A DNA stretch of 64,000 nt from a virus. The notes under the pieces are model-generated. The model did not search any database and was not told the DNA's origin. It saw nothing but the letters and a program-made list of their open reading frames with translations. Below are positions 20,478 to 46,445 of the stretch, piece by piece (within the stretch, counting starts at the first letter, position 1; each line of letters starts with the position of its first letter). The position numbers and the translations under genes were made by a program. Location of the stretch: positions 16,884 through 80,883 of IMG/VR virus record IMGVR_UViG_3300037961_005793, one strand, 5' to 3'.

Positions 20478-20563
20478 TGCCTGAGGCGAGACTTGAACTC
20501 GCATGACCTTTGCAGGTCGAGGGATTTTAAGTCCCTTGTGTCTACCGATTCCACCACTCAGGC
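20478..20563 (-). tRNA. trnL: tRNA-Leu(UAA), intronless, no encoded CCA
   Basis: GCCTGAG/CTCAGGC acceptor stem, D-loop GG, anticodon arm AGGGA-CTTAAAA-TCCCT, long variable arm, GTTCAAG T-loop. Confidence 0.95.
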
Positions 20564-26761: not shown

Positions 26762-27097
26762 TTGAACAACTCCATGATGATTATCGAGATCTACAGGCAC
26801 CATGGCACATGGGCTTTCACTGATCCCTACAAAGGACTTGAAAACGAACCGTTTGTGGCGGGCATACCGGAAATCATCGACGAATTCATCGAAAAATTCA
26901 GTGACAAGACCCAAGAGACGCACCGAATCACCTTTTCTTCGTCTGATTTCCCTGGTTCACACGGGAAACTAACCAAAACAAACCCCGAACAAGGAGGTGC
27001 TTGGTACAAATACGGCAAAAAAGAAGGTTGGTTGTGTCCGGCCACGCTGCACTACTTCCCAGAACACCCTGAGGAGCTTTTCGTACGGTTTAGCTAG
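26762..27097 (+). CDS. DUF6717-like protein
   Basis: GTWAFTD..GL..EPFVAGIPEIID...GWLCPA. Confidence 0.7.
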   Translation: MNNSMMIIEIYRHHGTWAFTDPYKGLENEPFVAGIPEIIDEFIEKFSDKTQETHRITFSSSDFPGSHGKLTKTNPEQGGAWYKYGKKEGWLCPATLHYFPEHPEELFVRFS

Positions 27098-27351
27098 CCT
27101 GATTTTTTTTCAGGCCGCTGTTATTATATTGCTACCCTAGAACTTTTACCCCCAAAATACCTAGAAGATACCCAGACCCTTCTCGCCCACGCCGTCGTAT
27201 ATGTCAAATAAGTAAAAAAAGGCAACATTGCGGGGTGCCGGGGAGGGGGGATAAGTATACCTTATGGATAAATGTAGTAAGGGGTAGTGTGACTTGGTGG
27301 GGGAGTCTCCTCCTATCATTGTTTCAATTGGTGAACCACGGTGGGGTGGTG

Positions 27352-27360
27352 TGATACAAT
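27352..27360 (+). promoter_or_regulatory. Extended -10 promoter for the early region
   Basis: TG-A-TACAAT. Confidence 0.5.
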
Positions 27361-27366
27361 CGCGCA

Positions 27367-28170
27367 CGCGCACGCAGTTCCTCTTAGTTACAAGGAGCGA
27401 ACACAATGTGCCAATCACATCTCCGCACACCATTCTCACCAACGTCACCGGATCCGTGGTCTACTTAATGGTGTCGAAGGGAGAGCGAGGCATGAGACCT
27501 CAGCACCGGAGACAATCTTCGAACTGTCACCAGTTCTTGCCGAGTTCGGCACAATCCCGTAACTTGGTTCACAAGTCAGGCAACTGACCCACAATCCAAC
27601 CAGCTTTGTTCAGTCCTTCGGGACATGTAACTAAGGCAGAACCTCGACAATCGAATCAGGATTAGCTAAGGGCAAAGGAGTTCCTCCTCCCTGGTGTGGC
27701 AATTGCCTCGCTTTAGTTATCTCCTGCTCTTCTTAATAGTTATGTGCCAGGTGTGTAGGGATAGCCTGCACTGCCACACGTCCGGCGTTCCGGTGTGGAG
27801 GGTGAACAGTAATGTTCTGATCGGCGGAATCGTCCGAGCCCAGCAGCACAGTTTTTAGTTACCTTCCCCATACAGGCGTGGTGTCTCTGTACATCAGGCC
27901 CCAGGGGGAAAGCTTCCTATCCTCATTTTGCTTCAGACCATACAATTTAATACTTTTGACATCATTTTGTGCGCTTTATGCGCTCTTTTTTGTTTTTGCT
28001 GGGTAGGGTTGACTTATGTCTAAGGGTTTGCAGTCTTGTAGTACCCATAGATACAGCAGCTCTACCTCAGTTTATGTTGTGATCATCCGTGATCATGACC
28101 TTTTCTGGAGTTTATGAATCCTCCCATGAGCCTTTTCGGTTCATTGAAGGACTCTAATCCTTCACCAATT
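27367..28170 (+). ncRNA. Candidate large structured RNA or early leader
   Basis: No credible long ORF; more than 15 helices including UUCG and GNRA tetraloops and G-U pairs favouring the plus strand. Confidence 0.55.
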
Positions 28171-28190
28171 GTTCTACGTTCATTCCAAAC

Positions 28191-28526
28191 ATGCGTAAGA
28201 TCGAAACTCTCATGAACAAAGCCCTCATTAACAGCAAGAACTGGAAACTTGCAAACACTGAGGTTACTTTCGACCAAGAATCTGGTCACTCTCGTGTATA
28301 TCTACATGGCAACCACATTGCCACCCTTGGTGAAACCTTCCTCACAATTACAGACGCTGGGTATCAAACAAGGACCACAAAGTCACGACTAAATGCAATC
28401 ATCCGCACATTTTGTTTCGAGGGTGAGAGTATTTATCAGAAACGTGGCGAGTGGTTTGTGAAGAAGCAAACAGTAGATGGTAAAGACTTTGAGAACATTC
28501 CTTTTTACGGTACTTACACTTTCTGA
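28191..28526 (+). CDS. Early phage hypothetical protein
   Basis: MRKIE...VYLHGNHIA...TTKSRLNAI, a common phage early-gene pattern. Confidence 0.8.
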   Translation: MRKIETLMNKALINSKNWKLANTEVTFDQESGHSRVYLHGNHIATLGETFLTITDAGYQTRTTKSRLNAIIRTFCFEGESIYQKRGEWFVKKQTVDGKDFENIPFYGTYTF

Positions 28527-31784: not shown

Positions 31785-31814
31785 TTGACACCATCTGCAT
31801 TTTGCTTTTATATT
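31785..31814 (+). promoter_or_regulatory. Sigma70-type promoter
   Basis: TTGACA-N18-TATATT in intergenic DNA. Confidence 0.65.
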
Positions 31815-31845
31815 GCCAACGTTGGCACAATCCCATCAAAACAAC

Positions 31846-31964: not shown

Positions 31965-32141
31965 ATGAAACTAACTAAGTACGACATCAACTTGCTCATT
32001 CAGAAACTTGATGATGATCTTGATGAACTGAGGAAAGGTAACTGGTGGTCAGTTGCTGCTGCTCAGGCACAGATCGTTGAGATTCAAAGCAAGTTGTACA
32101 ACCATCTCGTGGAAGTTTTGGAGGAGGATCCAGGCGAATGA
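31965..32141 (+). CDS. 58-aa helical protein
   Basis: MKLTKYDINLLIQKL...; coupled at both ends; read manually. Confidence 0.65.
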   Translation: MKLTKYDINLLIQKLDDDLDELRKGNWWSVAAAQAQIVEIQSKLYNHLVEVLEEDPGE

Positions 32142-32548
32142 CAACTAAGATCGACGAGAAACTCTCAAATGCAATTCTCACAGGGTGTGATCTCAAGGCC
32201 AGCAAGTACCGAGTGGATCACTTTAAGTTCCCTTGGCTACCTGAGACTGAGATACAATCTCGCATCGACATCTACTTCCAAGACAAACGCATCGTTGAGA
32301 TAACTGACGAACACGTCAGGATGAATCACCAGGGCTTTAACACTCAAGCTTTTGCATCTCGCTTGCGGTGCATTTTCAAAACGGCTTGTGACAATCTCCA
32401 CGACATCCAATATGGAAACGGGAGGATCTATGTTAGAACACCGAGTGATGTAGAAGGTATTCAATACAACTTCTACTTACTTGATCAAGATCCAAACTGG
32501 GTCACAGTCAGACGCCCTTCACACAAAGAATCTAATGTCAACGACTGA
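32138..32548 (+). CDS. Hypothetical protein
   Basis: Coupled ORF; possible distant paralog of 28191-28526 (GFNTQAFASRL vs GYQTRTTKSRL). Confidence 0.65.
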   Translation: MTTKIDEKLSNAILTGCDLKASKYRVDHFKFPWLPETEIQSRIDIYFQDKRIVEITDEHVRMNHQGFNTQAFASRLRCIFKTACDNLHDIQYGNGRIYVRTPSDVEGIQYNFYLLDQDPNWVTVRRPSHKESNVND

Positions 32549-39930: not shown

Positions 39931-39950
39931 CAAAAGCGGACTAACATTCA

Positions 39951-39978
39951 GGGGCTGCGACGGAAGCAGCCCTTTTTT
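39951..39978 (+). terminator. Rho-independent terminator
   Basis: GGGCTGC-loop-GCAGCCC followed by TTTTTT. Confidence 0.8.
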
Positions 39979-46373: not shown

Positions 46374-46412
46374 TCTGACCGGGCGTCGAGCCTTCTGATG
46401 TTCGGGGTTTTG

Positions 46413-46445
46413 AGACGGGTGTTTGCAGCACCCGTCTTTTTATTT
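46413..46445 (+). terminator. Rho-independent terminator
   Basis: AGACGGGTG-loop-CACCCGTCT followed by a T-run. Confidence 0.8.

Follow-up and report, generated by a model that had tools for sequence, protein, structure and literature searches.

A folded, untranslated early leader with a ribosomal-type boxB-boxA module in an uncultured phage, probably of marine picocyanobacteria

The leader locus

The early genes of the uncultured virus represented by IMG/VR record IMGVR_UViG_3300037961_005793 are preceded by a 1.1-kilobase (kb) gap without conserved open reading frames (ORFs), which lies between the late gene block on the minus strand and the early block on the plus strand (27100-28190). All coordinates are those of the window, a 64,000-nucleotide (nt) stretch that corresponds to bases 16884-80883 of the 80,883-bp record, itself rated complete by CheckV. 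The source is a phage of ~81 kb whose hosts are probably marine picocyanobacteria. Judged from its sequence, the stretch 27367-28170 within this gap is a real, heavily folded and untranslated leader RNA of ~0.8 kb that heads the early genes. It contains a module matching the boxB-boxA of host ribosomal RNA (rrn) operons, and the virus thereby probably borrows the host machinery that keeps RNA polymerase running through these operons.

The gap is flanked by a DUF6717 gene (26762-27097, +) and by the first early gene (28191-28526, +), which belongs to the Kyano_Gp96 family (PF23790, E 2.6e-40) and is of unknown function. Left of 26.7 kb the genes are on the minus strand, a terminase among them. 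From 28191 onwards they are on the plus strand and encode small unknown proteins, a MoxR/VWA pair, DNA polymerase A and a D5-type primase-helicase. A blastn search with 27100-28200 gave no match in cultured phages, and the identity of the DNA polymerase to any record is at most 27%, so that there is no cultured relative to lean on.

Folding and conservation of the leader

The original prediction, made from the letters alone, had described ORF-poor and almost continuously folding RNA behind an extended -10 element. The stretch 27367-28170 has a minimum free energy of -274 kcal/mol compared with -232 +/- 8 kcal/mol for dinucleotide shuffles, a z-score of -5.25 on the plus strand against -2.56 for the reverse complement (full-length values from only 20 shuffles per strand), and thus folds better than shuffled sequence, with a bias towards the plus strand. 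In 150-nt windows, the plus strand lies below its shuffles everywhere between 27300 and 28270; z is consistently -1 to -3 across 27300-27975 and most extreme at 27975-28124 (-6.25 on the plus strand, -2.2 on the minus strand). Folding of the flanking genes and of 27075-27300 is near z = 0. The leaders of four divergent relatives gave plus-strand values of -6.0, -4.7, -5.1 and -7.5 against minus-strand values of -2.2, -3.3, -4.9 and -4.9. The scarcity of ORFs also held, as no leader ORF is kept beyond a few of 18 variants. Hidden coding was rejected by comparing ORFs of at least 25 codons from these 18 leaders all-against-all: shared ORFs were common to at most 4-5 close variants, as nucleotide identity predicts. 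Folding does extend throughout the leader as had been described, but is interrupted by a conserved terminator (27969-27995), which leaves two units of ~620 and ~190 nt rather than a single domain.

Homologous regions were collected by way of the first gene, of two invariant words from a conserved block upstream of the promoter (27120-27300, described below), and of the records behind those loci. Of these loci, drawn from viral and marine metagenome contigs, 33 extend for 700 nt or more past the block, and they represent 20 sequence types. One of these, the human-gut type L144, was dropped along with two further human-gut contigs as chance matches to a 23-mer of the block, leaving ~19 variants (loci are labelled L, records G). 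These share a plan: extended -10, a mosaic chain of hairpins, terminator, a rod-like hairpin of ~30 bp, the palindrome TGATCA-N4-TGATCA and the first early gene. Counted from the start of the block, GTGCCAA lies at ~305 nt, AACCGTCAC at 420-460 nt, GAACCTTGAC at 527-575 nt and the palindrome at 880-1060 nt. Homology behind the block is mosaic, chunks of 100-250 nt being combined differently among the variants.

Compensatory changes were counted on alignments that are small and consist of related sequences, and the counts are therefore support and no proof. For the 3′ unit, RNAalifold recovered the rod only partly and the structure was supplied from per-sequence folds, which favours structure somewhat. 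With this structure of four helices, 81.7% of the cells are paired (rod alone, 74%) as opposed to 37-46% when the 3′ partners are slid, and 15 pairs are compensated as opposed to 6-11; no shuffle reached the observed values.

Elements of the leader

The extended -10 promoter, TGTGATACAAT, lies at 27350-27360 on the plus strand and is followed by a GC-rich CGCGC stretch. The original prediction of this element is borne out by its relatives, which have TGTGATACAAT, TGGTATAAT, TGATTTAAT or TGCTATATA at the same place, and we infer a transcription start near 27367. The phage promoter is unlike the host rrn promoter region. A candidate promoter inside the leader (27568-27595) was rejected as its hexamers are not conserved. 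Between the terminator at 27995 and the first gene at 28191, scan and inspection likewise found none with conserved hexamers. Elsewhere, TGAGATACAATCTCGCA at 32248-32264, within the ORF 32138-32548, repeats the leader promoter word TGTGATACAATCGCGCA with 15/17 identities and may be an internal early promoter.

All stems that had been listed in the original prediction can be read in the sequence at the coordinates given there, and several belong to elements shared with relatives. The first unit is hairpin-rich and ~620 nt long (27367-27995, +). It opens with CTTAGTTAC (27383-27391), the first direct copy of a recurrent motif, YTTAGTTAY, which is complementary over 11 bp to an inverted copy at 27627-27635. 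Next comes the conserved motif TGTGCCAATC (27407-27416), present as the full 10-mer in 10 of 20 variants and as its core GTGCCAAT in 13; a looser GTG[CA]CA[AG] is found at one relative position in 14 of 20. Hairpin A, ACACCATT with AATGGTGT (27427-27474), is kept with G-U variants in module type A1 and swapped for a different module in L098, L099, L133, L139 and L140. A linear motif with the consensus CCAATCGCCAAACCGTCACAAG (27512-27563) runs into the three-tier hairpin B1 (27526-27563), topped by TTGCC-N6-GGCA. Among 16 variants 8 of the 14 pairs of B1 have changed on both sides, with 71% of cells paired against 24-48% when slid, and its top stem reads UUGCC/GGCA, CGUC/GAC or GAACC/GGUUC. The stem GAACTG/CAGTTC (27521-27536) is peculiar to this genome and competes with B1.

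A near-consensus promoter further into the early block, TTGACA-18-TATATT (31785-31814), is directly followed by TTGCCAACGTTGGCACAATCCC (31813-31834). This sequence is of the type TTGCC-N6-GGCACAATCCC and repeats the B1 top (27537-27558) with 18/22 identities. The two could share an operator or an RNA hairpin. No second copy of the B1 top was found in relatives, whose loci are mostly too short for it.

Behind B1 stands a GNRA hairpin, GTCAG-GCAA-CTGAC (27575-27588), with GCGA and GUAA loops in relatives and a compensated stem, GCCAG/CTGGC, in L139. After the boxB-boxA module considered below, the multibranch module C (27651-27853; about 27640-27860 in the comparison of variants) contains TTTAGTTAT (27712-27720) as well as a hairpin with a GUAA cap. 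Only L133 (93%) and L093 (84%) have it too, and unrelated folded sequence takes its place elsewhere. Co-variation of the motif pair makes TTTAGTTAC (27854-27862) a candidate partner, on the 3′ side, of 27626-27636 in a long-range helix. Module D contains the hairpin TTCCCC...GGGGAA (27864-27910).

The intrinsic terminator (27969-27995, +) consists of a GTGCGC-TTTAT-GCGC stem and the T-run TCTTTTTTGTTTTT. Both parts are kept in 12/12 aligned variants and readable in three more distant ones (L135, L124 and L111); 93% of cells are paired, with one compensated pair (CG to UA). The rod, an imperfect hairpin of ~30 bp (27998-28071, +), coincides with the extreme of local folding (z -6.25). It forms in 12/12 variants, with energies from -26 to -43 kcal/mol, and both partners have changed in 12 of the 32 pairs. 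The rod most likely serves processing or stability and separates leader from mRNA, and cutting by an RNase III-type enzyme, as ahead of the first early gene of T7, is plausible. An NtcA box, GTA-N8-TAC, within its 3′ arm (28041-28054) is kept in the closest relatives only and is unsupported as a conserved site.

The palindrome GTGATCA-TCCG-TGATCAT (28079-28096) occurs once in the window and is shared by 15 variants, among them the distant G009 group. Of its seven pairs five never vary and only the loop changes. TGATCA-N4-TGATCA could be an RNA hairpin or a DNA operator, and may be a DNA site because it never co-varies. Among the hairpins that had been placed at 28105-28165, the last, GAAGGA-CTCTAA-TCCTTC (28146-28163, +), lies 28 nt before the start codon, with 94% of cells paired and 2 of 6 pairs compensated. 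Compensatory changes are thus found in B1, the terminator, the rod and the hairpin nearest the gene, and not in the palindrome.

Short contigs from three metatranscriptome studies contain stretches of the leader or of its relatives. Those from sponge and marsh libraries cover 27993-28198 and those from a seawater library 27452-27593 and 28160-28404. The rod was found in X8 and X10. Together with X6 these contigs cover only 27150-27296, 27452-27593 and 27993-28404 of the 3 kb compared, and are weak evidence, in which uncovered parts carry no information.

A boxB-boxA module shared with host rRNA operons

A hairpin with a UUCG loop (GTCC-TTCG-GGAC) within a longer stem occupies 27603-27637, and its 3′ arm holds the inverted motif GTAACTAAG (27627-27635). 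One base after it follows GAACCTCGACAA (27639-27650). We tested this pair, hairpin 27603-27637 plus AGAACCTCGACAA, as an rrn-style boxB-boxA. The boxA GAACCTCGACAA is a single copy; no second one was found in the 80.9-kb genome or near Gp96 homologues of other phage types, and no boxA complement was found further down the leader. In 10 of 16 variants GAACCT[N]GACAA occupies the equivalent position, and there are two near-matches. Position 7 differs among phages (T, C, G or A), the remainder is fixed and the flanks vary. A hairpin whose sequence is unrelated between sites lies immediately ahead, ending 1-2 nt short of boxA in most of 12 phage variants and in 14/14 folded host rrn sites; for L133, L118 and L127 the minimum-energy structure shows it in another form. 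Registers of the boxB stem, and of the long-range helix, differ between variants, so that there are no fixed columns to score.

The general cyanobacterial spacer boxA is GAACCTTGAAAA and D4 is CTGCATA (PMC8461337, which uses the boxB-boxA-D4 nomenclature of Iteman et al.). A primer has been placed on a boxA motif "highly conserved in all known marine picocyanobacteria" (PMC9769826); its complement, GAACCTTGACAACTGCATAG, is the spacer boxA-D4, and a C at boxA position 10 marks marine picocyanobacteria. This C is also carried by the phage variants. When the 20-mer GAACCTTGACAACTGCATAG was searched against one genome per prokaryote species, the matches listed came almost only from Prochlorococcus, Synechococcus and related cyanobacteria.

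Twenty phage leaders were then compared with 80 picocyanobacterial rrn loci by blastn-short. The only matches above noise were boxA with its flanks, at the spacer site and at a second site ~2.35 kb upstream, which is the rrn leader; wider rrn mimicry was rejected, as nothing beyond boxA and flanks matched. Host boxA reads GAACCTGGACAA in leaders and GAACCTTGACAA in spacers. The Synechococcus rrn leader AAGGCAGAACCTGGACAATCGAA is matched by the window and by L139 at 22/23 positions and by L093 at 19/19, and the Prochlorococcus rrn leader CAGAACCTGGACAACTTAA by L118 and L127 at 18/19. A third group (L082, L146 and L124) reads on as GACAACTAGCA[T/C]C, that is, CTAGCA[T/C]C after boxA, which is reminiscent of spacer boxA-D4. 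The host leader 3′ flank AAAGTTTAGGAACTGA is absent beside the phage boxA.

The order of boxes in rrn operons is boxB then boxA (PMC8632103), and the phage module agrees in sequence and arrangement with an rrn-type nut-like site. It is preceded by a conserved extended -10 at a distance of 280 nt and followed by a terminator of the same orientation. The original prediction could not match the leader to a known class, and for most of it this stands. Covariance models detected only a tRNA (20478-20563) in the whole window at gathering score. At permissive E values only chance miRNA-hairpin matches appeared in 26900-28400 and nine relatives, with nothing else below E = 1 in either, and no part of the leader matched the described large non-coding RNAs (GOLLD, ROOL, OLE, HEARO and others; Rfam 15). 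The host boxB-boxA is the one module that is recognisable. Among the functions that had been suggested, an antitermination leader gains direct support from the boxB-type hairpin and GAACCTCGACAA (27603-27650), which copy the picocyanobacterial rrn site, and from the terminator downstream. A new large non-coding RNA agrees with the lack of an Rfam match and with the amount of folded RNA left unexplained, although one conserved tertiary fold would not be expected when modules are swapped between relatives. On anti-defence decoys, the variability of the modules is the sole observation that bears.

Antitermination of the early operon

We give a probability of roughly 60% to the reading that this is an untranslated and folded leader at the 5′ end of the early operon, with rrn-style antitermination by Nus factors. 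Transcription, Nus binding, read-through and cleavage of the leader would proceed as follows. Host RNA polymerase would start near 27367 from the extended -10 promoter (27350-27360). Some 270 nt on, the transcript would present the boxB-type hairpin and then the single-stranded boxA. By analogy with rrn operons and with the nut sites of lambda, boxA would recruit host NusB-NusE(S10), which together with NusA and NusG would render the polymerase fast and termination-resistant and let it chaperone RNA folding as well. The modified polymerase would pass the terminator at 27969-27995 and two strong plus-strand intrinsic terminators within the early and replication block (39950-39974 and 46412-46438), and an unmodified polymerase would stop at 27995 and leave an RNA of ~620 nt. 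The rod behind the terminator would separate leader from mRNA.

Several points weigh against this reading. The rrn antitermination complex of E. coli acts mainly against Rho and, to our knowledge, cyanobacteria have no Rho; read-through of intrinsic terminators is therefore an extrapolation. BoxA needs ~40 nt, and antitermination does not explain the other 600 nt of folded, modular RNA. Position 7 of the window's boxA is C where host sites have G or T, albeit at a position that is variable among phages. Six of 16 variants depart from the pattern: L099, L140, L084, L085 and L135 are without a recognisable boxA at the site and L133 has a near-match only. The RNA-library contigs are short, give neither strand nor ends and could be DNA carry-over. 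Finally, no boxC was found, nor any phage N-like or Nus-like protein among the proteins scanned (13 early ORFs). The absence of an N protein is weak evidence because N proteins are small and diverse, and boxC is not essential in E. coli (PMC8632103).

Among known systems, the cyanobacterial rrn leader and spacer are the closest. They have the same 12-nt boxA with C at position 10 and up to 22/23 identical bases including flanks, the same order of boxB then boxA, a single-stranded boxA and untranslated structured RNA behind a promoter; a long-range helix of the leader-trailer type may be shared too. The phage site differs in that it heads protein genes, the window lacks D4 and AAAGTTTAGGAACTGA, its other 600 nt are dissimilar, and its function is putative. 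Use of host Nus factors through boxA is textbook knowledge for lambda, whose nutL and nutR with N likewise involve a phage early-leader RNA with a host-like boxA ahead of terminators. The present site is not a nut site of the lambda type, because its box order is reversed and no N-like protein was recognised; it is moreover single, and we know of no Rho in the phylum of its host. In coliphage T7 the early leader consists of several hundred untranslated nt behind the A promoters, with the RNase III site R0.3 before gene 0.3. The likeness is that host polymerase makes an early leader which is long and untranslated, and that an extended imperfect hairpin directly precedes the first early gene. 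T7 is unrelated in lineage and host, however, and the present leader is far more structured and modular, with cleavage at the rod predicted only. GOLLD and ROOL are of similar size class and phage context, but no Rfam match to the window or nine relatives was obtained and there is no conserved core; the swapping of modules between relatives argues against a single conserved tertiary fold of this type. The put RNA of HK022 is also a nascent leader that acts on polymerase, but unlike put the present leader has a factor-dependent boxA. A literature search found no paper on boxA or the use of host Nus factors in cyanophages.

The boxA copy is sufficiently specific to give a clue to the host: its flanks are of Synechococcus-leader, Prochlorococcus-leader or spacer type, and these flanks could be a host-prediction marker for an uncultured and widespread lineage of ~80-kb marine phages. 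The leader would also be a natural long, modular, folded RNA that is presumably expressed first in infection, and its variable modules are candidates for new RNA functions.

Alternative explanations

The motif YTTAGTTAY occurs seven times in the 64-kb window compared with two copies expected, and four of these, three direct and one inverted, lie within 27383-27862. The inverted copy (27627-27635) is the 3′ arm of boxB and is complementary to the copy at 27383, as well as to those at 27712 and 27854. In L093, L146, L133 and L097 the segment before boxA is GTCGTTAA and a segment 180-250 nt downstream is TTAACGAC, which pair over 8-12 bp. The motif pair thus exists in two co-varying forms, GTAACTAAG/TTAGTTAC and GTCGTTAA/TTAACGAC. 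The order is flipped in L084 and L085, where the direct copies follow the inverted one.

In the hosts, the spacer 112-160 nt past the 16S end can pair with boxA of the rrn leader and its 3′ flank (10 + 16 bp; loci L230, L159, L162, L188, L194, L225, L172, L226, L175 and L214). The pairs ACCUGGACAA/UUGUCUAGGU and AAAGUUUAGGAACUGA/UCAGUUCCUAAACUUU constitute the 16S leader-trailer helix, and host boxA itself therefore lies within this helix. Its core, UUUAGGAAC/GUUCCUAAA, resembles the phage motif pair.

The phage RNA may accordingly imitate the processing stem as well, bracketing boxA and module C. The locus would then be a miniature mimic of an rrn operon whose product is a non-coding RNA rather than a gene leader, which we think unlikely. 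Module C (~200 nt), and perhaps D, would lie bracketed by the promoter, boxB-boxA and a helix of leader-trailer type (27626-27636 with 27852-27862), the latter two modelled on the 16S processing stem of the host. They would load the host machinery for rRNA transcription and folding, so that a phage-specific RNA is made, folded and processed like host rRNA and ends at the terminator; the early genes would be controlled at the TGATCA palindrome. The modules would be exchanged under diversifying selection or an arms race, the RNA serving for example as a decoy for a host factor or defence system, a sponge or a guide. The conserved terminator that ends the unit, the exchange of modules C and D between close relatives and the co-varying complementarity across boxA all agree with such a product, as do the host pairing and its similar core. 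Furthermore, rrn elongation complexes have been proposed to promote such long-range pairing (PMC8632103). The phage helix is only 7-12 bp, however, and per-variant p is 0.07-0.35 in five of the eight motif-pair variants. Three direct motif copies and the flipped order in L084 and L085 fit protein-binding sites equally well, the early genes have no promoter of their own that could be found in 27995-28191, and the product RNA is predicted only. Because concerted change of repeated protein-binding sites would look the same, we retain imitation of the processing stem as a rival only.

Repeated binding sites lead to a further explanation, that the region functions mainly as DNA, either a replication origin or an array of protein-binding sites, and that its hairpins are by-products of inverted repeats. 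The four YTTAGTTAY copies, the ATACCYAG-type repeats of the upstream block, TGATCA-N4-TGATCA with its GATC sites, which never co-varies, and the recurrence of TTGCC-N6-GGCACAATCCC right behind the strong promoter at 31785-31814 are in keeping with it. So are the repeats of ATACCTA and ACTTAAGTA that form an AT-rich array beside the block in the distant relative G009, the divergent gene blocks on either side of the region, and the presence in the phage of a D5-type primase-helicase and DNA polymerase A. Folding is strand-asymmetric, however, the rod, B1, terminator and last hairpin contain G-U pairs and compensatory substitutions, the conserved promoter and terminator share one direction, and the match of boxA to host rrn is sensible only as RNA. 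As the main function of the region, a DNA role is thus quite improbable, but the antitermination leader and DNA sites can coexist because the DNA-type features lie mostly outside 27367-27995.

That the hairpins arose by chance in drifting, functionless non-coding DNA would suit the poor conservation of much of 27650-27960 and modules that are non-homologous between relatives, but is very hard to reconcile with a length and plan kept in ~19 variants, strongly negative z in five independent sequence types, covariation and the identity of boxA.

Upstream block and minor observations

The non-coding block at 27120-27300, which may not belong to the RNA, is near-invariant in 11 relatives even though the Gp96-family first early proteins, in the relatives that have one, are 66-92% identical. 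It contains ATACCYAG at 27157 and 27168, ATACCTTA at 27257 and the palindrome ATAAG-N5-CTTAT (27251-27265), and is unstructured (z near 0). A 23-mer from it, CCCCAAAATACCNNNAAGATACC, was found in 15 viral and 37 metagenome contigs. It may serve as an origin, in packaging or in regulation. A phage attachment site (attP) or other host-derived sequence was rejected: comparison of 27110-27370 with five picocyanobacterial genomes gave chance matches only (E > 0.3). In L111 (record G009) an AT-rich array of ATACCTA, ACTTAAGTA and TAACTAAG words, ~150-430 nt past the block, replaces the G-rich segment of the window, and from its sequence looks iteron-like.

The first early gene is not constant. L096, L097, L098, L146 and L113 carry a protein starting MTDFDCHAATELELH instead of the Gp96-family gene, and the end of the leader is homologous despite this. 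Further into the early block, the DNA polymerase gene lies 10 nt past the terminator at 39950-39974.

Many metagenome contigs end 40-300 nt past the block at scattered positions, which we read as assemblies breaking at a strain-variable region rather than as a physical genome end. In the complete relative G007 (80,498 bp), the contig overlaps itself by 750 nt at 98.9% identity (L109 1-749 and L113 1573-2322), exactly over the leader. This suggests a circular or terminally redundant genome whose assembly was broken at strain variation.

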